Below, piece by piece: positions 24,068-39,517 of a stretch of 44,504 bases of DNA. How positions within the stretch are numbered: the first letter of the stretch is position 1; every line of letters begins with the position of its first letter. A program made the translations under genes and the position numbers. Source of the DNA: a virus (taxonomy: Duplodnaviria; Heunggongvirae; Uroviricota; Caudoviricetes); the IMG/VR virus record IMGVR_UViG_2537561991_000021, one strand, 5' to 3'. The notes beneath the pieces were generated by a model. It made no database searches, had not been told where the DNA came from, and saw only the letters and a list, made by a program, of their open reading frames with translations.

Positions 24068-24163
24068 ACTTCCCACCTCCGCCATTACGGGGTGTTGTTG
24101 AAAGGCGGGCCCTGCGTATACGCCCGTAGGATTGGGTTATGAGCCGTCCTTCGGTGGGCCCTG

Positions 24164-24191
24164 AATACAAAAAAAGTTCGCCATAGCGAAC
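24164..24191 (-). terminator. rho-independent terminator in the Q-to-holin region
   Basis: Minus-strand hairpin GTTCGC-TATG-GCGAAC followed by TTTTTTTGTATT. Confidence 0.65.
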
Positions 24192-24418
24192 CTTGTTAAA
24201 TTTGTTAAAAAAGGAAGTTATTTAACATAATGTACGTTATAGGAACCACACGATCCCCGCTCGCAATAGATTTGCGATGAAAGGCCTATTTAATCAACTT
24301 AAGTGGTCCAGAATGACGAAATTCGAGTGAATAAAAGGTGCATAAAAAAGGGCAAAAACTGCATAGCGTTTTTTCGCAGCGAAAGCCCTGTTTTATTAGC
24401 TTTTCCCCAGAATGGGGC

Positions 24419-24445
24419 AATAAAAAAGGCCCCCTTGCGGAAGCC
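24419..24445 (-). terminator. second rho-independent terminator in the Q-to-holin region
   Basis: Minus-strand stem GGCTTCC-GCAA-GGGGGCC (two G-U pairs, GNRA-type loop) followed by TTTTTTATT. Confidence 0.55.
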
Positions 24446-24512
24446 TCTTCGTGATGAACTGTTTTCAACAGATATCAGGCTAATCGGCTTTTTGGAATTC
24501 CACAACTATTTT

Positions 24513-24853
24513 TTATCTTACCTTGATGCCTGATGCCGTCAGATGTTTACGACAGTCCTGAATACCTTCGTTATAACCCGCATCGTAGAAGCTATCCGGC
24601 TTTGCCTTCAGCGCAGGAAGCGTAACGCTGGTAGCTCTTCGTTCGGCCAGAACACCTGCCTGAAAGAGTGTCCACATCAACTGAACTGCTGAATCACAGT
24701 AAGTAACATCTTCACTGTACAATTCTCGTTCAATCCGATGCCAAGTTGAGCCTTCATTGATGCGCCAATATTACCTTTGACCTGCAACGACAGGTCTGGG
24801 TACCTCTGTTCCATGAAGCTTTCAAATCTGTTGCGAACGCTGATCAGAGCCAT
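24513..24853 (-). pseudogene. frameshifted hypothetical gene directly after Q
   Basis: A 58-codon ATG ORF with an AAGGGA RBS (MALISVRNRFESFMEQ...) overlaps a -1-frame ORF of 69 aa or more (24513..24722). No slippery heptamer is visible in the overlap. Confidence 0.4.
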
Positions 24854-24884
24854 CTGGTTCCCTTACGTGATTGATTGCTGGATA

Positions 24885-25307
24885 TTATGCCGCCGAGCAG
24901 CTCCTACGCAAAGTCCTGATAGCCTGAGGCTTTGACTGAACCGACTGATCCATTTCGAGCACCACATCCAGCATGGCTAAGCAACCGTCAATAAATCCCT
25001 CTGCCGCCTGAAGCCTCTTCAGAACGTGGGTGTGAGATACGCCGAGCTTCTCACCCATCGCCCGCACGGGCATGGCCTGGACGTAATGCCACTCAAGGAG
25101 CGTGCACAGATACGGATCTTTTTTCTTCAGGCAGCTCATAGCGGAGTTGATGATAAGACCGTCATTGTCACTGCATTTCAGCCTTCCAGACTGCGTCGCG
25201 GGTAGCAGATTCTTAAACCCGGCTGCAACAGGAGGAAAGTAGACGCTACCACCTTCACTCGCTGCCCAGCCACCCCAGCGCTCTAAAACCTGTTGAATAT
25301 TACGCAT
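24885..25307 (-). CDS. Q: late-gene antiterminator Q (QuuD-like)
   Basis: 140 aa; MRNIQQVLERWGGWAA...AAGFK...LLEWHYV...KRLQAAEGFIDGCL resembles DLP12 QuuD-type antiterminators as recalled; located upstream of the lysis cassette. Confidence 0.8.
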   Translation of the reverse strand: MRNIQQVLERWGGWAASEGGSVYFPPVAAGFKNLLPATQSGRLKCSDNDGLIINSAMSCLKKKDPYLCTLLEWHYVQAMPVRAMGEKLGVSHTHVLKRLQAAEGFIDGCLAMLDVVLEMDQSVQSKPQAIRTLRRSCSAA

Positions 25308-25436
25308 AGCTCTGACCTCTACGTTTTGCTACGAAAAAATTTTCTGAGAACCACGTCTGTTTATCCGTGGGTGTGGATAACGCAGTTCCGATTCGCTTAT
25401 TACACGCTGTTATGTGCAAAAAATTCCTTGTTCGGC

Positions 25437-25608
25437 CTGTACCAATCTGTACCCACCTGTACCAGCTCTTTTCAAACCTTTTCCCCAAGCGACTTATATA
25501 TATATATGGGGTTCTTAGTAATTAGGTTGGTACAGATGGTACAGTTGGTACTGACCTTTAAATTCAATTAGTTAAAATGTACCAACCTCTATTTTGAGGC
25601 TGGTACAG
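25437..25608. repeat. iteron-like heptamer array flanking a (TA)7 tract; candidate replication origin
   Basis: CTGTACC at 25437, 25447 and 25457 (10-bp phasing); (TA)n at about 25494..25507; inverted copies GGTACAG at 25529, 25539 and 25602, GGTACTG at 25548, TGTACC at 25578. Confidence 0.6.
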
Positions 25609-27781
25609 GTTGGGACACCGCCTCAAAAATTCGAGTCATTTTCCCCCCAATTCGCCTTTGGGCACGCTTATACCCGCAATTTTGCAAAACATTACTAATT
25701 CGCATTTCTTCGCGTTTTCCGATGCGGTCAGGATTTAGCCCAATCGCATCACGCAAAACATCACTTGCGCGTAAAAATTCGCAATTTCGCGGAAGTTCAT
25801 TAGTCATCAGGTCTGGCGTGTCGAGCCATTTCTCTACCGTTTCAAGCCAAGCATCCTTGATGGTGTACTGTTCATGGACACTCGCTGCCAGTTGTTCAGC
25901 CTCACGGAACTGGATACCCCCCAGACGCTGAAACACCTCACGAGCCTCAGCCCAAAGTAAAAGGAGATCTCTTTTTATCGCTTTCACGTCGACTTTCGAC
26001 ACTTCCACGGGGAGCCAGCGACGGTTACCAGTCTTGTCCGCAAGGAATTCGTCCTCATTGGTGGTACCAACGAACACCAGGCGACGAGGAAACTGGGTGG
26101 CGAACTCCCGGTATTTCGGGATCCAGTTTTCGTGAGTACGCGTCACAAACGCTTTGATTGACTCCAGCTCTTTGGTATTAAGTCCGCGCAGTTCACCAAT
26201 CTCTGCCACCAGCCGACCACGCATTTTTCGAGCGAGATCATCGTCTTTTTCGGCAAAAGAGATTTCAGTAAAAAACGCAGGATCAGGGCTCAGTGCCTCC
26301 ACTCCGGAAGACTTACCGCAGCCCTGCGGACCAACGAGGATCGGCACCATATCCGCTTTGATGCCTGGCTCCAGTACTCGCCCCGCCAACGCGGTCCACA
26401 TGTACATAGACACCGCACGGGTATAAGGCGTGTCGGCTGTACCGAAGTGCGTATGGTAGAAACATTCGATGCGCGGCACGCCATCCCACTCCAGCCCGTT
26501 CAGCCAGGTAATCGCTGAATCGAATGGTTGTTCATCGGCTGCAAGTAACACCACATCGCGAATAAGTTCACGACCAACAGGTTTAAATCCCCGCTTTTCC
26601 ATCGTGATGCGCAGGCGCGCATAATCCGCATCGGTGAATGCTCGCCATTGTCCGGATCCTGCAGAGGCAAACATGATTTCGTCGCGGAACTGGTCAAAGC
26701 GAATATCGATGTCCACAAAATCAGGGCGTACTACTGCTTTGGCTGCGTTGCTGATGGTTGCCTCGATACGCCCCCATTTATCACGCTCGAAAGCAGGCAG
26801 CGGTAAAGGTTCCGCCACTTCGGTGCTGGTCAGATCTTCGAAATCGTCGTTGCGGATCCCGATGGCATTAAGGAAATCTCCGTCATCACGATGCGCACAA
26901 CTGGCATGCAGGCATTTAAAATGCCCCTGCTCAAAGCCCGCGGTTCCCGCAGGAAAATAAGCTGTGCTTGTTGGATCGCCCCCGCTACTGTGGCCGTCTT
27001 CAAACGGACAGCGGATATATCGTTCACCATTTGCGCCATCCAGCAGCGTCCAGCCATTGGCATCAAGATATTCAGCTGTATCATCCGTCGCGCCGGGCGT
27101 GAATGCTGATCGGTCGCGCATCTTCGTGTTGCCCGCTTCGGTGGTTACCGACACAGGGAGTTGTTCAGCCAGGCGCTGCCACAGCGTTTCAAGCTGCTCA
27201 CCAGTAATAGCCGGAGGTTCATCCGGCAAACCACCGTCCCATTCAATACGCGCGCCGCTGCTGTGCGTACCACAGGCAACGAACTGCTGCCCGTTCGCCA
27301 GCAACTCGATAATGCCCATATCCCCCGCCAGGCGATGGATACGCTTACAGAAATCACCATCAACGGCCAGCAGATACAGACACTTATTACTGTTTGCTCG
27401 CCAGCGTCGCGGCGGCAACTCCCCCAGAAGTTGCACAAGCGTTTTGCGAATATCTGCCTGAATGTCTTCATCTTCGCTATCGCAGTCCAGCGCCAGCCAG
27501 CCATGGCCTGTACGCACGCAGATGCCATAATCCGGTTCATTCGACCAGCGGGCAAAATCATGCTCAGTAACAACATACCCGGTCCATTGAGCAATACCGG
27601 TGACCTGGCGGTCCCGGTTATAGCGACTTGGCGTCTTACCCAGCGCTTTCAGTTTACTATCAGGGGATATGGTCGCACCGGGGTTACATACAACTGGGAG
27701 AAGATGATCAGTTCTCCCCAATACCAGGTCGAAATGAAACCACTCATCAGGCGTAGCTCCCCATGGTTTGCTATCGGACAT
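25589..27781 (-). CDS. DNA primase / replication initiator with C-terminal P-loop NTPase
   Basis: 730 aa; Walker A GPQGCGKSS; Cys/His cluster CPFEDGH...CLHASCAH; tightly coupled to the cro-like gene (TAACCCATG). Confidence 0.7.
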   Translation of the reverse strand: MSDSKPWGATPDEWFHFDLVLGRTDHLLPVVCNPGATISPDSKLKALGKTPSRYNRDRQVTGIAQWTGYVVTEHDFARWSNEPDYGICVRTGHGWLALDCDSEDEDIQADIRKTLVQLLGELPPRRWRANSNKCLYLLAVDGDFCKRIHRLAGDMGIIELLANGQQFVACGTHSSGARIEWDGGLPDEPPAITGEQLETLWQRLAEQLPVSVTTEAGNTKMRDRSAFTPGATDDTAEYLDANGWTLLDGANGERYIRCPFEDGHSSGGDPTSTAYFPAGTAGFEQGHFKCLHASCAHRDDGDFLNAIGIRNDDFEDLTSTEVAEPLPLPAFERDKWGRIEATISNAAKAVVRPDFVDIDIRFDQFRDEIMFASAGSGQWRAFTDADYARLRITMEKRGFKPVGRELIRDVVLLAADEQPFDSAITWLNGLEWDGVPRIECFYHTHFGTADTPYTRAVSMYMWTALAGRVLEPGIKADMVPILVGPQGCGKSSGVEALSPDPAFFTEISFAEKDDDLARKMRGRLVAEIGELRGLNTKELESIKAFVTRTHENWIPKYREFATQFPRRLVFVGTTNEDEFLADKTGNRRWLPVEVSKVDVKAIKRDLLLLWAEAREVFQRLGGIQFREAEQLAASVHEQYTIKDAWLETVEKWLDTPDLMTNELPRNCEFLRASDVLRDAIGLNPDRIGKREEMRISNVLQNCGYKRAQRRIGGKMTRIFEAVSQPVPASK

Positions 27782-27784
27782 GGG

Positions 27785-27997
27785 TTAAGCCTTTTTATCG
27801 TTTTGTGAGCCATACAACAGCCAATTAGGGTCGCAATCCAATGCTATAGACATTTCAAGAAGATAACGTGGCCGAGCAATAACACCACTTTCAATTCTGT
27901 TTATTGCCTGCTGGCTCACTCCTGTGAGCTCAGCCAACGTAACTTGCGTCATTTTGAGTTCTTTACGTCGTTCTTTTACTCGGGTCGCTAAGGTCAT
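27785..27997 (-). CDS. Cro-like HTH (XRE family) regulator
   Basis: 70 aa from the ATG at 27997 with a GAGGTG RBS; HTH region QVTLAELTGVSQQAINRIESG; divergent from the CI-like gene. Confidence 0.75.
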   Translation of the reverse strand: MTLATRVKERRKELKMTQVTLAELTGVSQQAINRIESGVIARPRYLLEMSIALDCDPNWLLYGSQNDKKA

Positions 27998-28117
27998 TGC
28001 TTTCACCTCATACAATTTTAGTGGTATTTAGCAACAACAAATGAGGTTTGTCAAATACAACAAAAATTGTTTTTAATGTGGGTATACACATTAATACAAC
28101 CCAGAAGGACTAATCCC
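27998..28117. promoter_or_regulatory. divergent promoter/operator region of the immunity switch
   Basis: Inverted repeats ACAAA-N5-TTTGT (28037..28051) and ATACAA-N6-TTGTTT (28055..28072); TTGACA on the minus strand and TTGTCA-N18-TTTAAT on the plus strand. Confidence 0.55.
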
Positions 28118-28741
28118 ATGTCTCTCGCAGCCCGTTTTAAAGCACGTCGTTTGGAATTAGGAATGACTCAAGTGGAAGTAGCGAATTCTGCAGGGGTTAG
28201 CCAACAATCCATAGAATCCATCGAAAGTGGACGAACCAGAAAGCCACGCAATCTTCTGGATCTGGCTAAGGCCTTGAAATGTAGCCCAGACTGGCTACTG
28301 AACGGTAAAAATATTATGCCTCTCGCGGAGATAAGTACCAGACGCATACCTATATTAAGTTACGTTCAGGCAGGAGAGCTTACAGAAGCAAGAGACATAA
28401 CAGATCTGACAGGGGAATTTGAATATATTTTGGCAGACTCTGACATTCCAGAAACATGCTTCGCATTACGTATTGATGGCGACAGCATGCAACCAGAGTT
28501 TAAAGAAGGAGACATTGTTATCATCGATCCTGATCTATGTCCTGCACCAGGGGAGTTTGTTGTCGCCAAAAACGACGGTCACGAAGCTACATTTAAAAAA
28601 TACCGTCCATTAGGAATCGGCATCGACGACTTTGAATTAATCCCCCTAAATCCTGATTACCCTATTTTTCGTAGTGCAGATATGAACTTACAGATCATAG
28701 GTGTAATGATCGAACACCGTATTTACCGCCGTAAACGTTAG
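28118..28741 (+). CDS. CI-like repressor (HTH-XRE plus LexA-type S24 peptidase domain)
   Basis: N-terminal HTH (MTQVEVANSAGVSQQSIESIESG) and C-terminal autoprotease signature (GDSM...K). ATG at 28118 with an AGAAGGA RBS; the ORF track extends to 28067. Confidence 0.8.
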   Translation: MSLAARFKARRLELGMTQVEVANSAGVSQQSIESIESGRTRKPRNLLDLAKALKCSPDWLLNGKNIMPLAEISTRRIPILSYVQAGELTEARDITDLTGEFEYILADSDIPETCFALRIDGDSMQPEFKEGDIVIIDPDLCPAPGEFVVAKNDGHEATFKKYRPLGIGIDDFELIPLNPDYPIFRSADMNLQIIGVMIEHRIYRRKR

Positions 28742-28757
28742 TATTCCCACCGTAAAT

Positions 28758-28777
28758 ATCGGGAGGCGTAACAGCCT
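28758..28777 (+). terminator. hairpin after the CI-like gene (possible terminator)
   Basis: GGGAGGC-GTAACA-GCCTCCC stem-loop 17 nt after the stop; weak T-tract. Confidence 0.4.
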
Positions 28778-28867
28778 CCCTTACCCCATTTGTAAAGTCT
28801 TACAAATTAAATTCACTTAAATATCAATAAAGTAGTATTCACACCCCACAAAATACCACGTTTGCGG

Positions 28868-28896
28868 TTTACACAATACAACTCAAATTGTATCTT
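28868..28896 (+). promoter_or_regulatory. candidate early promoter with overlapping operator palindrome
   Basis: TTTACA-N17-TATCTT; the spacer carries the perfect inverted repeat ATACAA-CTCAAA-TTGTAT (28876..28893), related to the motifs in the cI/cro region. Confidence 0.5.
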
Positions 28897-29063
28897 TAGC
28901 CACAAGTCGAACGGCGCGACTCTAAACCATGCGTCGGGACCGTGGCGGGACAGGATGTCGGCAATACGGGTCAGTAAGTTCCCTTTGGGGTGCGGCGAAG
29001 CACTGCCTACTGATACAAGTCGAAGCCGCCGAACCACCAAAGTGAACTGAATGAGGAAACGGC

Positions 29064-29258
29064 GTGAAAACATATAAACCGCTCAAAGGTGAATGCCCTG
29101 CTTGCCAAACACAGCTTCAGACACCAAAGCCAAAACGATACCAAATCAACGAATGTTATGAGCACTGCCCTGGATGTGGTGCTTTCCTGCATACCATTGC
29201 AACGCACTGGCGTGTCCGCTTCAACCTTGTGGTACCACGTACGCACAATACCAACTGA
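29064..29258 (+). CDS. small zinc-ribbon protein, first gene of the early operon
   Basis: 64 aa, GTG start after a GAGGAAA RBS; Cys pairs CPAC and CPGC. Confidence 0.5.
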   Translation: MKTYKPLKGECPACQTQLQTPKPKRYQINECYEHCPGCGAFLHTIATHWRVRFNLVVPRTHNTN

Positions 29259-29289
29259 ATCATCCATGTAATTGCTGTGTGTAGTCTTT

Positions 29290-29316
29290 GCCCGCCGCAA
29301 GTGACGGGCTTTTTTA
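29290..29316 (+). terminator. rho-independent terminator / attenuator after the first early gene
   Basis: GCCCG...CGGGC stem (extendable) followed by TTTTTT. Confidence 0.5.
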
Positions 29317-29520
29317 TGTCTGAAAGCGCACTCGCAACAGCGCGCTCCCCGATATGAAAAAAGGAATACAACCGATGAAACCTGAACACCTCTATCGACT
29401 GACGGGGCGCGATGTTCTCCGTTATCGCCGTAAAAACTTCGATTTGATGACCGGTCTGGCCGTTGCCACTGCGCTCGGTCTGATCATCACTTTCATTCTC
29501 CTTGTTGCGAGGACCACAGT

Positions 29521-30423
29521 ATGAGTTTAGAAACCAGTCTCGAACTTAATAATCAACTTCTGGCACAACATAATGCGCTGCTTGAACGTCTTATCCGCAC
29601 AATGGCATCAGGTATTGTTATGCATCCTGACACGATTTCACGAGTGCAGGAATGTCGGGATACAGCAACTGAAACTGAAAATATGTCAGCGGCAATGACA
29701 CTGGATGATCTGGAGTTCAGCGACGTTATCGCACTGGCTGGTTTCTACCCGGTAGCCACCCCTATCACAGAAGACATGCTGCAACGTGCTGTTGCCTACC
29801 GTGATGCTGAAGGCGATAAACGAGTAGTTCAGATTGATCCTCTCGACAGCGCATTGCAGGGCGTCAAACGAGCCAGGGCACTGCATAAACCCGCTCTTCT
29901 GGACCTGTCCCGTAACATTCTTAAGTTCTGGGACGACCTGCCAACCATCGGCGAGCGACGTGCTTTTGCCGAGCAACTACTTGATGCACCTGCAGATGGG
30001 CGTGATGAAGTTAAGCCGAAAAAGGCCAGTAACAAAGATGGAGAACGCACGGGGCCGTTTTACGTCAAAAATGTATCCGGCACAGCAGCCAGTGAACTCC
30101 ACACCTTACGCAAGTTGAACGAGATGCTTAAAAAAGGCCATATCGAGATCAACCGTGTTGAGTACCTTCAGCTGCAGGAAGAATTTGCACGCAGAGACGC
30201 AGCAAATTCCAGCCAGAATAATGACGCCAAAGATGACCATACAATTGATTTCGCGGCACTACGCAAACAAGCTGAAGGGTTGATCCTCCAGTTAGCAAAA
30301 GGGGGTTACCGGGCAGAAGCTATTGCAATTCTGGAAAAACAGGGAGCCAGGAAACTTGGTGAAGTAACGGATGAAAATCTCGCTGAAGTAATCACCCTGG
30401 CTGAAAAAGCACTGGAGGGTTAA
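29521..30423 (+). CDS. hypothetical early protein
   Basis: 300 aa, ATG with a GAGGA RBS; no recognisable motif. Confidence 0.6.
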
Positions 30424-31742: not shown

Positions 31743-32102
31743 ATGAAACTGAAGCTGAACAATGTTCGTCTGGCCTTCCCGTCTCTGTTTGAAGCTAAAA
31801 CTGTAAACGGCGAAGGCGATCCGCGTTTCTCCGCAGTATTTTTAATGTCTCCCAAACACCCACAACTGGAAGAAATCCGTAAAGCTATGAAGCAGGTAGC
31901 GAAGGAAAAATGGGGAGAGAAGTGGGAGCCCATTTATAACCAGCTGGAGAAAAAACTCAATCTGTGCCTGCATGATGGTGATGAAAAAGCAGAGTATGAA
32001 GGCTTCCCCGGTAATTTCTTCCTGAATGCTGCTAACAAAGCGCGCCCAGCTGTTCTTGATCGCGATCGTTCGCCACTTATTCAGGCTGACGGACGTCCCT
32101 AT
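31743..32102 (+). pseudogene. putative ssDNA-binding protein, 5' part (split by IS insertion)
   Basis: Reading frame runs into the IS end at 32103 (GTAAGCG); continues in frame at 35642. Confidence 0.6.
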
Positions 32103-32174
32103 GGTAAGCGTACAGCCTGAACCGTCTGGTCAGAATCTGACGAATTAGACAAAGTGGTGTCCACCAAATAAGTA

Positions 32175-32994: not shown

Positions 32995-33672
32995 ATGTCC
33001 ATCATTTTTAATGGACACTATCGTATGAAACACCGGACCTGGATCACTGAAGCTTTACGTCTTCACTTTGAAGAACATTTACCCCGGGTTGTGGCCGGGC
33101 GTCGCCTGGGTGTACCAAAATCAACAGTTTGTAGTATGTTCGTGCGCTTTCGGAGAGCTGGCCTTTCGTGGCCTTTGCCCGCAGGCATGTCGGAGCAGGA
33201 ACTTGATGCCTGCCTTTACGGACAATTTTCCACGGTACCAGTCGTACGTCCTGAAAGCACCGTTATATCCGAAGCCCCCGTGGTAAAAAAACGTCCCCGG
33301 CGGCCCAACTTCCCTTATGAGTTTAAAATCGCCTTAGTGGAGCAGTCACTGCAGCCCGGAGCCTGTGTGGCGCAGATCGCCCGGGAAAACGGAATCAACG
33401 ATAACCTGCTCTTCAACTGGCGCCATCAATACCGGAAAGGTGGCCTGCTGCCTTCCGGAAAAAATATGCCGGCACTGCTTCCCGTGACGTTAACGCCGGA
33501 GCCGGATAATAAAATCCCGGCCCCCGCACAGGAACCAGAGCAGATAAATACACCGTCCGACAGTCTGTGTTGTGAGCTGGTTCTGCCGGCCGGAACTCTC
33601 AGGCTTAAAGGTAAACTGACGCCGGCGTTATTACAGACACTTATCCGCGAAATAAAAGGGAGCAGCCACTGA
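32995..33672 (+). CDS. IS66-family orfA-like protein with N-terminal HTH
   Basis: 225 aa, about 97% identical to 1387..2064. Confidence 0.8.
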   Translation: MSIIFNGHYRMKHRTWITEALRLHFEEHLPRVVAGRRLGVPKSTVCSMFVRFRRAGLSWPLPAGMSEQELDACLYGQFSTVPVVRPESTVISEAPVVKKRPRRPNFPYEFKIALVEQSLQPGACVAQIARENGINDNLLFNWRHQYRKGGLLPSGKNMPALLPVTLTPEPDNKIPAPAQEPEQINTPSDSLCCELVLPAGTLRLKGKLTPALLQTLIREIKGSSH

Positions 33673-34019
33673 TGATATCTCTCCCTGCAGGTTCGCGTAT
33701 CTGGCTGGTTGCAGGTATCACCGATATGCGAAATGGCTTTAACGGCCTGGCATCAAAAGTTCAGAACGTCCTGAAGGATGACCCGTTCTCCGGACACCTG
33801 TTCATCTTCCGCGGACGCCGGGGTGACCAGATAAAAGTGTTGTGGGCTGACAGTGACGGACTGTGCCTCTTCACCAAACGCCTGGAGCGGGGCCGCTTCG
33901 TCTGGCCAGTCACCCGTGACGGCAAGGTGCACCTTACTCCGGCTCAGTTATCCATGCTTCTTGAAGGTATCAACTGGAAGCACCCGAAACGAACGGAACG
34001 CGCTGGAATCCGCATATAA
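33672..34019 (+). CDS. IS66 Orf2-like accessory protein (TnpB)
   Basis: 115 aa, identical to 1040..1387. Confidence 0.85.
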   Translation: MISLPAGSRIWLVAGITDMRNGFNGLASKVQNVLKDDPFSGHLFIFRGRRGDQIKVLWADSDGLCLFTKRLERGRFVWPVTRDGKVHLTPAQLSMLLEGINWKHPKRTERAGIRI

Positions 34020-34038
34020 CCCGTTGTAAAGTGAGGAT

Positions 34039-35610
34039 ATGGACACCTCACTTGCTCATGAGAACGCCCGCCTGCGGGCACTGTTGCAGACGCAACAGGA
34101 CACCATCCGCCAGATGGCTGAATACAACCGCCTGCTCTCACAGCGGGTGGCGGCTTATGCTTCCGAAATCAACCGGCTGAAGGCGCTGGTTGCGAAACTG
34201 CAACGTATGCAGTTCGGTAAAAGCTCAGAAAAACTTCGTGCAAAAACCGAACGGCAGATACAGGAAGCACAGGAGCGAATCAGCGCACTTCAGGAAGAAA
34301 TGGCGGAAACGCTGGGTGAGCAATATGACCCGGTACTGCCATCCGCCCTGCGCCAGTCTTCAGCCCGTAAACCGTTACCGGCCTCACTTCCCCGTGAAAC
34401 CCGGGTTATCCGGCCGGAAGAGGAATGCTGTCCTGCCTGTGGTGGTGAACTCAGTTCTCTGGGATGTGATGTGTCAGAGCAACTGGAGCTTATCAGCAGC
34501 GCCTTTAAGGTTATCGAAACACAACGTCCGAAACAGGCCTGTTGCCGGTGCGACCATATCGTGCAGGCACCAGTACCTTCAAAACCCATTGCACGCAGTT
34601 ATGCCGGAGCGGGGCTTCTGGCCCATGTTGTCACCGGGAAATATGCAGACCATCTGCCGTTATACCGCCAGTCAGAAATATACCGTCGTCAGGGAGTGGA
34701 GCTGAGCCGTGCCACACTGGGGCGCTGGACAGGTGCTGTTGCTGAACTGCTGGAGCCGCTGTATGACGTCCTGCGCCAGTATGTGCTGATGCCCGGTAAA
34801 GTCCATGCTGATGATATCCCCGTCCCGGTCCAGGAGCCGGGCAGCGGTAAAACCCGGACAGCCCGGCTGTGGGTCTACGTCCGTGATGACCGTAACGCCG
34901 GTTCACAGATGCCCCCGGCGGTCTGGTTCGCGTACAGTCCGGACCGGAAAGGTATCCATCCACAAAATCACCTGGCCGGTTACAGCGGTGTGCTTCAGGC
35001 CGATGCTTACGGTGGTTACCGGGCGTTATACGAATCCGGCAGAATAACGGAAGTCGCGTGTATGGCTCATGCCCGGAGAAAAATCCACGATGTGCATGCA
35101 AGAGCGCCCACCTACATCACCACGGAAGCCCTGCAGCGTATCGGTGAACTGTATGCCATCGAGGCAGAGGTCCGGGGCTGTTCAGCAGAACAGCGTCTGG
35201 CGGCAAGAAAAGCCAGAGCCGCGCCACTGATGCAGTCACTGTATGACTGGATACAGCAACAGATGAAAACACTGTCGCGTCACTCAGATACGGCAAAAGC
35301 GTTCGCATACCTGCTGAAACAGTGGGATGCACTGAACGTGTACTGCAGTAATGGCTGGGTGGAAATCGACAACAACATCGCAGAGAACGCCTTACGGGGA
35401 GTGGCCGTAGGCCGGAAAAACTGGATGTTCGCGGGTTCCGACAGCGGTGGTGAACATGCGGCGGTGTTGTACTCGCTGATCGGCACATGCCGTCTGAACA
35501 ATGTGGAGCCAGAAAAGTGGCTGCGTTACGTCATTGAACATATCCAGGACTGGCCGGCAAACCGGGTACGCGATCTGTTGCCCTGGAAAGTTGATCTGAG
35601 CTCTCAGTAA
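34039..35610 (+). CDS. IS66-family transposase TnpC
   Basis: 523 aa with leucine-zipper-like N-terminus and CPACGG...CxxC zinc motif; right inverted repeat 30 bp downstream. Confidence 0.85.
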
Positions 35611-39454: not shown

Positions 39455-39477
39455 TTACCCCTTATTGTTGATTACAA

Positions 39478-39502
39478 CCCTGCATCGCGGGGTTTTTTAT
39501 TT
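39478..39502 (+). terminator. rho-independent terminator after the TIR-like gene
   Basis: CCCTGC-ATC-GCGGGG stem (one G-U pair) followed by TTTTTTATTT. Confidence 0.7.
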
Positions 39503-39517
39503 GGGAATAAAAACCCT

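Follow-up and report, generated by a model that had tools for sequence, protein, structure and literature searches.

A predicted putL-type antiterminator RNA and an RprA-like terminator in the predicted early-left leader of a Caudoviricetes prophage

In phage lambda the N/nut system, like the rrn-type boxA, supplies a processive antitermination signal just after an early promoter. In phages HK022 and HK639 the signal is a polymerase-utilisation (put) RNA, a two-stem element of about 74 nucleotides (nt) directly behind the repressor-controlled early-left promoter (PL), and put systems need no protein partner (PMC9378689). Here we describe the leader that separates a CI-type repressor gene from the first large early gene in a 44,504-nt stretch of DNA (the window) from the IMG/VR virus record IMGVR_UViG_2537561991_000021 (Caudoviricetes). 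We consider it very likely that this leader is the PL-type control region of a temperate phage that uses put-type, RNA-mediated processive antitermination as HK022 does. What the sequences show is homology, conservation of structure, synteny, the operator and the homology of the terminator; binding to RNA polymerase, read-through in vivo and any small RNA (sRNA) activity are inferences.

The leader ends in a terminator that resembles part of a host sRNA. RprA (Rfam family RF00034) is encoded by a free-standing gene between ydiK and ydiL with an RcsB/CpxR-dependent promoter, and its last 47 nt persist after processing as a stable RNA that is itself regulatory (PMC9262595). The module in the window shares with this processed form 24 identical single-stranded nt, a Rho-independent terminator with its U-tract and the orientation of transcription, whereas it is without the 5' stem-loop, the rpoS-pairing region and a promoter of its own, scores below the Rfam threshold and forms the 3' end of a phage leader or mRNA. 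A precedent for an sRNA made at such a place is StxS, an Hfq-binding, 5'-processed sRNA that arises by early termination at tR' of Shiga-toxin phages (PMC7547250). The likeness would be that a short phage transcript is stopped at the first terminator while antitermination lets other polymerases through. In contrast to StxS, which belongs to the late promoter PR' and Q, the window would employ PL and put, and StxS is not an RprA homologue.

Every sequence feature named in the initial annotation lies where it had been placed. The upstream half of the leader contains the following features.

28868-28896, + strand: early-left, PL-like promoter from a promoter scan, with -35 TTTACA (28868-28873), a 17-nt spacer and -10 TATCTT (28891-28896).
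28876-28893, strandless: operator-like palindrome ATACAA-N6-TTGTAT (putative OL), an exact match lying between -35 and -10.
28902-28911, + strand: first copy of the direct repeat ACAAGTCGAA, which covers the predicted transcript start and the 5' strand of put stem I.
28903-28976, + strand: putL-type antiterminator RNA, predicted by blastn, alignment, mapping of pairs from cryo-electron microscopy (cryo-EM), covariation and a covariance model.
28905-28909 with 28917-28921, and 28912-28916 with 28932-28936: 5' duplex and lower helix of put stem I.
28925-28930: put triplex strand and sigma70 -10-like AACCAU.
28938-28972: put stem II.
28977-29048, + strand: conserved long imperfect hairpin between put and the first open reading frame (ORF), from RNAalifold, with the second repeat copy in its variable apex.

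The promoter is the candidate early promoter that the initial annotation had placed ahead of the leader, and transcription would start at about 28903. Its -35 hexamer is identical to that annotated for PL of HK022 (-35 TTTACA, -10 CATCAT), and in the alignment the distance from -10 to put is equal in the two phages. Only two copies of the palindrome with one mismatch occur in the window, at 28010-28027 and 28055-28072, both in the cro-cI divergent region. This is the layout expected of OL and OR, with the two cro-cI copies as putative OR and OL inside PL, and it marks the promoter as one predicted to be under repressor control.

The GC-rich segment that the initial annotation had noticed behind the promoter (GC 0.61 at 28900-28999 against 0.29-0.38 just upstream) is, as judged by comparative sequence analysis, a homologue of the cis-acting putL-type antiterminator RNA of HK022. 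At gathering thresholds Rfam, which does not include the put family, found no match in the whole window, and ARAGORN found no tRNA; put was identified solely through blastn to annotated phages. In that search, 28700-29400 matched the annotated putL of HK022, HK75, O276 and HK639 with 79-84% identity (E values of 1e-9 to 9e-6), always on the strand that fits transcription, and the annotated records share the order cI, PL -35/-10, putL. An alignment of the window put with known puts, including putR, has 32 invariant columns, and the core common to HK022, HK639 and the window reads CGAACGGCGCG ... AAACCAUGCGUCGG ... GGCGGG ... AGGAU ... GGCAAU. The three also have in common the pairing scheme (with compensatory changes), the -10-like pause element and the lack of an N protein.

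The pairs seen in the cryo-EM structure of HK022 put (PMC9378689) were mapped by hand onto the window sequence, put nucleotide n being window position 28902+n. All canonical pairs can form, and four compensatory changes separate the two RNAs. The 5' duplex A3-G7:C15-U19 is retained with A5:U17 changed to U:A, and stem II is retained with G38:C70 changed to C:G, C41:G66 to U:A and an apical U:A to A:U. Helix C10-G14:C30-G34, the A9/G35 platform and the G12-U32 pair are identical to HK022, and the triplex strand U21-C25 (UAAAC) and the putL-specific -10-like AACCAU (+23 to +28) are unchanged. The critical nucleotides A9, G35, U28 and G12-U32 are found at 28911, 28937, 28930 and 28914/28934, respectively; in HK022 the changes A9C, U28A/C and G35A inactivate put.

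Natural variants support the same fold. With a degenerate pattern we collected put sequences from viral contigs and aligned 19 distinct putL-type variants, in which 91.9% of cells pair under the cryo-EM scheme and 10 pairs are changed on both sides; controls with a slid 3' partner pair in only 22-48%. The covariation score of this alignment is 0.379, compared with 0.098 in shuffles, and none of 500 shuffles reaches the observed value. A covariance model built from the alignment scores 86.8 bits (E value, 1.4e-19) at 28903-28978, against 10.7 bits for the next best place in the window, and gives 95.1 bits for HK022 putL, 91.1 for HK639 and 34.1 for HK022 putR. Beyond the window, the same put type was found in 15 further viral contigs and, together with the full leader, in 59 Escherichia coli genomes. 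In an Enterobacter bugandensis prophage (L201), located independently through the small zinc-ribbon ORF treated below, put is identical at 74 of 74 positions while the neighbouring segments are 54-89% identical. The put described here is a new member of a known family, although the prophage may already be listed in King et al. 2011 (J Bacteriol 193:5784; reference 31 of PMC9378689). Separately, put-like elements in three other loci (L059, 384-467; L044, 10457-10540; L133, 3460-3538) have a normal stem I and a divergent or apparently replaced stem II; that of L133 scores 58 bits with the covariance model, and these elements may be degenerate copies or a further put subtype.

Several observations weigh against a functional put at this locus. 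In stem II the apical helix has 1 bp less than its HK022 counterpart, and the bulge, although kept, carries a G (28968) in place of U68, a nucleotide whose deletion abolishes antitermination in HK022 (PMC9378689); natural variants (L020, L098, L106) have G at this position as well. The alignment on which the covariance model was trained included the window sequence itself. Single-sequence folding misses the put structure and does no better than shuffles (z = +0.68 for put alone and -0.37 for 28890-29070, which was folded on both strands). Had folding energy been the sole guide, the region would have been dismissed; the put structure rests on homology and covariation. Neither the pattern nor the covariance model with filters off finds a putR-like element on the cro/primase side. 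That negative is meaningful because the same model recovers HK022 putR, and it means that only one early operon would be served; HK639 as annotated likewise has a put in the left operon only, whereas the putR of HK022 has no counterpart in the window. Finally, the prophage carries an IS66-family insertion and may be defective.

The direct repeat itself turned out to be of little consequence. The initial annotation had described a 10-bp repeat, ACAAGTCGAA, flanking the GC-rich segment, and there are indeed exactly two copies in the window, at 28902-28911 and 29015-29024. By chance 0.14 copies of this sequence would be expected per window, and by our own estimate about 0.4 pairs of any 10-mer within some 900 nt. 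The second copy is deleted in three relatives (L138, L154, L190) and mutated to ACAAGCCGAA in three others (L158, L036 and the Enterobacter prophage L201). The two copies were therefore rejected as a functional pair or as flanks of an element: the first belongs to put stem I, and the pairing of the two is incidental. The hairpin that holds the second copy, in contrast, is a real element. Among 10 variants RNAalifold gives it 19 consensus pairs, two of them with compensatory changes, and it is retained with either of the antiterminator types described below and regardless of which gene follows; L158, which lacks put, keeps the hairpin. It may serve as an RNase III-type processing site or as a translational element.

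The downstream half of the leader contains the following features.

29064-29258, + strand: 64-amino-acid (aa) Cys-rich, zinc-ribbon-like ORF with a GTG start and a Shine-Dalgarno (SD) sequence GAGGA at 29053-29057, 6 nt upstream of the start.
29255-29316, + strand: RprA 3'-half-like module of seed and intrinsic terminator, predicted by Rfam, blastn, alignments and folding.
29270-29293, + strand: 24-nt seed AATTGCTGTGTGTAGTCTTTGCCC, identical to RprA of the host (K-12).
29289-29314, + strand: intrinsic terminator, GCCCG (29289-29293) and CGGGC (29304-29308) followed by T6 (29309-29314).
29320-29350, + strand: conserved GAAAGCGCAC motif and small palindrome directly after the terminator, from a motif count.

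The intrinsic terminator that the initial annotation had set before the replisome genes is there, as an RprA-type hairpin and T6; a simple terminator scan had passed over it because its loop exceeds 8 nt. Its claim that every downstream gene depends on read-through was overstated. In the promoter scan the + strand of 28896-29526 holds no promoter-like site, and promoter-like sites do occur at 29526-29574 at chance-level frequency, so that internal promoters are possible; minus-strand genes and the IS66-family insertion also lie downstream.

A permissive Rfam scan assigned RprA to 29210-29319 with 48.2 bits (E value, 7.3e-5), below the gathering threshold of 70. With blastn, 29200-29325 gave 5970 places in 5424 of 5426 complete E. 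coli genomes. All 5424 have a match in the annotated rprA, and of the approximately 546 extra places none of those listed is annotated. AATTGCTGTGTGTAGTCTTTGCCC is the single-stranded part of the 47-nt processed RprA, whereas stem and loop of the terminator differ from K-12 RprA, with one compensatory change from A-U to G-C. The 5' stem-loop and the rpoS-pairing region of RprA are not kept, and the upstream part of the match aligns weakly and is coding sequence. In RNAduplex, K-12 RprA, as a control, pairs with the rpoS leader at the known site with -24.0 kcal/mol; the window RNA reaches -23.8 kcal/mol at a non-homologous site, about 1.4 standard deviations from shuffles and thus no better than these. 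Within the phage, the best duplexes of the seed (-21 to -23 kcal/mol) fall in coding regions, and none is significant. By these alignments 29255-29316 is a partial homologue of the RprA 3' module and not a member of the RprA family.

The seed is conserved where its surroundings are not. In the Enterobacter relative it is identical at 23 of 24 positions, with adjacent segments at 52-60%, and a 22-nt core is invariant in host rprA, the prophage described here, phage LLS, the N4-like and jumbo Erwinia phages and an Enterobacter prophage, all with unrelated flanks. An exact search with the 24-mer found 73 IMG/VR viral contigs with at least eight unrelated upstream contexts and differing terminator stems (module-bearing loci include L128-L199, L200 at 1801-1829, L202 at 1501-1547 and L203 at 1201-1222), with the caveat that most of the phage set was gathered by exact seed match and apparent conservation is thereby inflated. 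The nearest upstream ORF on the same strand encodes a CI-type repressor in 9 of 10 representatives. By blastp, such an ORF lies within 1.8 kb upstream in 56 of 74 modules; 12 of the 18 exceptions do not have enough upstream sequence, which leaves 56 of 62 informative modules downstream of a CI-type repressor gene. In LLS the module is located between the repressor gene and yfdP, and in N4-like Erwinia phages it follows thymidylate synthase. It is also present in jumbo Erwinia phages, in Cronobacter phage phiES15 and in Aeromonas and Stenotrophomonas phages; the Erwinia carriers include virulent phages. No record that we inspected annotates it. We also considered whether the module stems from attP/attB, through phage integration into rprA. 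For most copies this was rejected, as they are found in mid-genome after repressor genes and not at integrases or contig ends.

Of 77 RprA-like modules, 48 have with them the motif GAAAGCGCA(C/T)TC, which belongs to a palindrome or hairpin and has a background frequency of 0.037 per kb; GAAAGCGCA is found at +52 from the seed start in the window family and about 190-205 nt upstream in LLS-like families. In five loci (L152, L193, L128, upstream of the seed, L134 and L179) the seed directly follows an end that resembles a tRNA T-arm and acceptor, GGTTCGATTCCGG...ACCCA or GGTCGAGTCCCGG...CACCA. These ends sit in long structured leaders, received no call from Rfam or a tRNA model, and could be tRNA-like elements or processing signals.

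The module does not depend on put, nor put on the module. Only 16 of 75 module-bearing loci have a put, and the puts of HK022 and HK639 type are not followed by the module; put without module and module without put indicate that the two are independent units. In relatives of the window phage that have another immunity type, the slot of put is taken by a perfect rrn-type boxA, GCTCTTTAACAA, and a perfect boxA occurs in 24 RprA-module loci. The presence of boxA where put is missing makes an antitermination signal a constant feature of this position in the leader. In the window itself, 28700-29400 contains no boxA-like match even at two mismatches; here the leader differs from lambda N/nut, as it also does in the absence of an N-like protein and in that a search of the sequence identified no boxB-like element. 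In agreement with the initial annotation, no N-like protein is encoded by any ORF of the window, and the Cys-rich ORF is without an arginine-rich motif. The alternative leader (L127, 1500-1780; L005, 2020-2280; also L155 and L158) consists of a promoter, a small T-run hairpin, boxA and, behind it, about 150 nt of structured RNA that has three GGTAAGC[CG] repeats and no Rfam match. It may be a second, undescribed antitermination RNA module. An Rfam search found nothing in the alternative leader of phage 606R2 and, in 12 other leaders, only tRNAs and STnc100.

The proposed mechanism is as follows. Once the CI-type repressor leaves the operator overlapping the promoter, sigma70 RNA polymerase would start at about 28903, and the first 74 nt of transcript (28903-28976) would fold into the two-stem put. 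As in HK022, put would bind the zinc-binding domain of the beta' subunit and stay bound, and the polymerase would then resist pausing and both intrinsic and Rho-dependent terminators. In this modified state it would pass 29289-29314, and further + strand terminators such as that at 39476-39503, and so reach the genes for replication and recombination, with no need of an N-like protein. Long-stem terminators are reported to resist processive antitermination (PMC10325885), and the RprA-type terminator at 29289-29314 is unlike these in having a short stem. For a polymerase without put, transcription would end at 29314; the leader RNA thus set free, about 412 nt long, would have the RprA-like module as its 3' end and, after processing, could mimic processed RprA.

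The initial annotation had left open antitermination or attenuation, and the evidence from the leader favours the former, through the putL-type RNA, over the latter, since the ORF is not conserved together with the terminator. The zinc-ribbon-like ORF does contain five Cys (CxxC ... C...CxxC), and it is probably a real small gene, but one that is dispensable for the architecture. Pfam gives sub-threshold zinc-finger matches only and no family assignment; the protein occurs in just three clusters among 5.8 billion, and RefSeq does not annotate it in the E. coli O55:H7 CB9615 prophage. Among close variants, 12 of the variable sites are nonsynonymous and 5 synonymous, and one of the copies has a frameshift. 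The Enterobacter homologue is 76% identical with all five Cys kept and a ratio of nonsynonymous to synonymous changes (pN/pS) of 0.31. In relatives that keep the terminator, the slot of the ORF is occupied by unrelated small ORFs, by a reverse-strand gene or by no ORF at all, and this replaceability argues both against leader-peptide attenuation and against the protein as antiterminator. Translation-coupled attenuation, in which a ribosome on the ORF would decide whether the terminator forms, could draw on the good SD sequence and on the end of the ORF 31 nt before the terminator stem. That distance from the stop codon (29256-29258) to the stem at 29289 is, however, too long for ribosome cover, given the size of the ribosome footprint, no alternative antiterminator pairing stands out in the fold, and a dedicated antiterminator RNA is already present upstream, so that we regard attenuation as highly improbable. 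Equally remote, in our estimate, is a role of the zinc-ribbon protein as a trans-acting antiterminator analogous to N or Q. Its gene opens the operon, ahead of the terminator, and the pN/pS ratio and the conserved Cys show constraint at the protein level; yet the protein has neither an arginine-rich motif nor a family, is restricted to three clusters and is missing from relatives that share the terminator and the genes behind it, and put systems do not require a protein. Scarcely more probable is that the put-like sequence is an inactive relic and the terminator leaky or bypassed by internal promoters. The exchange of U68 for G, the shorter apical stem, the insertion in the prophage and the promoter-like sites at 29526-29574, at chance frequency as they are, could be taken to point that way, whereas complete conservation of put between diverged flanks, the compensatory changes, the retained critical positions (A9, G35, U28 and G12-U32) and the recurrence of the put type and full leader in other contigs and genomes speak for a functional element.

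A different question is whether 29255-29316 serves chiefly to make a regulatory sRNA, with termination control secondary. This is compatible with the put explanation, and we give it somewhat less than an even chance. Under it, the PL-leader transcript would end at this terminator and be processed to about 50-60 nt. The product, with the exact single-stranded sequence of processed RprA and an Hfq-type terminator, would mimic host RprA or compete with it upon induction or in the course of infection. The identity of AATTGCTGTGTGTAGTCTTTGCCC to K-12 RprA alongside a differing stem and loop, the stability and activity of the processed 47-nt RprA (PMC9262595), the invariant core between unrelated flanks in many viral contexts, the position behind CI-type repressor genes, the near-identical seed of the independently found Enterobacter relative and the precedent of StxS (PMC7547250) are all in keeping with such a role. 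On the other side stand the Rfam score below gathering, the missing rpoS-pairing region and 5' stem-loop with rpoS pairing no better than shuffles, the lack of a visible promoter of its own and of a significant target inside the phage, and the inflation of conservation by exact-match collection; put, moreover, would lower termination at 29314 and hence the yield of sRNA. Going further, and more tentatively still, the RprA 3' seed and terminator might be a mobile sRNA cassette that Enterobacterales phages have repeatedly placed as the first terminator of the PL leader. A mimic of processed RprA would then be set free with every round of early transcription and would reprogramme or titrate the RprA/Hfq network of the host, and put or boxA-type RNAs would set the ratio of sRNA to early-gene expression.

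The leader is embedded in a genome with the following further features.

28118-28741, + strand: CI-type repressor gene with HTH_3 and Peptidase_S24 domains (Pfam E values of 1.2e-12 and 2.3e-21, respectively).
28761-28780, + strand: GC-rich hairpin GGGAGGC-GUAACA-GCCUCCC right after the cI stop codon, folding with -16.1 kcal/mol (z = -4.0) and without a clear U-tract.
39476-39503, + strand: second strong intrinsic terminator with an 8-bp stem and T-run, from the terminator scan (fold, -11.3 kcal/mol; z = -2.3).

Called mechanically, the repressor ORF starts with TTG at 28067; ATG at 28118 is likelier, and it gives a product of 207 aa, as in the RefSeq annotation of the identical prophage in E. 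coli O55:H7 CB9615 (207-aa LexA family protein). A start at 28118 leaves space for the repressor promoter PRM and operators. The hairpin behind the gene might act as a weak terminator or stabilise the cI transcript; its segment is 54% identical in the Enterobacter relative, that is, not conserved in sequence. Upstream, the opposite strand encodes a Cro-like helix-turn-helix protein (27785-28015), a VapE-type primase (25589-27781) and a Q-family antiterminator (24885-25307). The last of these, in the - strand stretch 24085-25589, matches Pfam Phage_antitermQ with an E value of 5e-42, and between it and a holin gene lies an untranslated gap of about 800 nt, presumably PR'/qut/tR'. With put early and a Q-family gene late, the phage pairs RNA-based early with protein-based late antitermination.

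An IS66-family element resembling ISEc8, with three ORFs, occupies 32995-35610 (+ strand), with 31743-32120. It interrupts a DUF2815 gene after codon 125, and the gene is intact, at 549 bp, in the O55:H7 CB9615 prophage. For this reason the prophage in the window is possibly defective; the element would also exert a polar effect on the left operon.

The phage differs from HK022 in more than its leader. Unlike HK022, it falls outside the classical lambdoid siphoviruses: besides a Q antiterminator it has a VapE primase, DUF2800/DUF2815 genes, a family-A-like DNA polymerase and myovirus-type late genes. Its put differs from that of HK022 in the sequence of stem II, in the shorter apex and in the G for U68, and it is followed by the conserved long hairpin and the RprA-derived terminator, which the HK022-type and HK639-type puts lack. 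A literature search by name and by sequence string returned nothing on phage RprA-like RNAs; neither put coupled to an RprA-derived terminator nor the wide distribution of the module at the start of early operons in phages appears to have been described.

The put predicted here would explain how early genes are expressed in a prophage without N that is found in dozens of E. coli genomes, including O55:H7 and Shiga toxin-producing E. coli (STEC) strains, and it would extend RNA-only antitermination to a non-lambdoid type of genome. It also adds natural variants for comparison with the cryo-EM structure, among them a G in the U68 bulge and a shortened apex. Potentially of greater importance is the RprA-like terminator: about 1 in 10 complete E. 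coli genomes seems to carry an additional RprA seed that lies in a prophage and is not annotated. Should such RNAs be produced and associate with Hfq, phages would have copied a core stress-response sRNA on a wide scale, and studies of RprA function in lysogens would have to account for the prophage copies.

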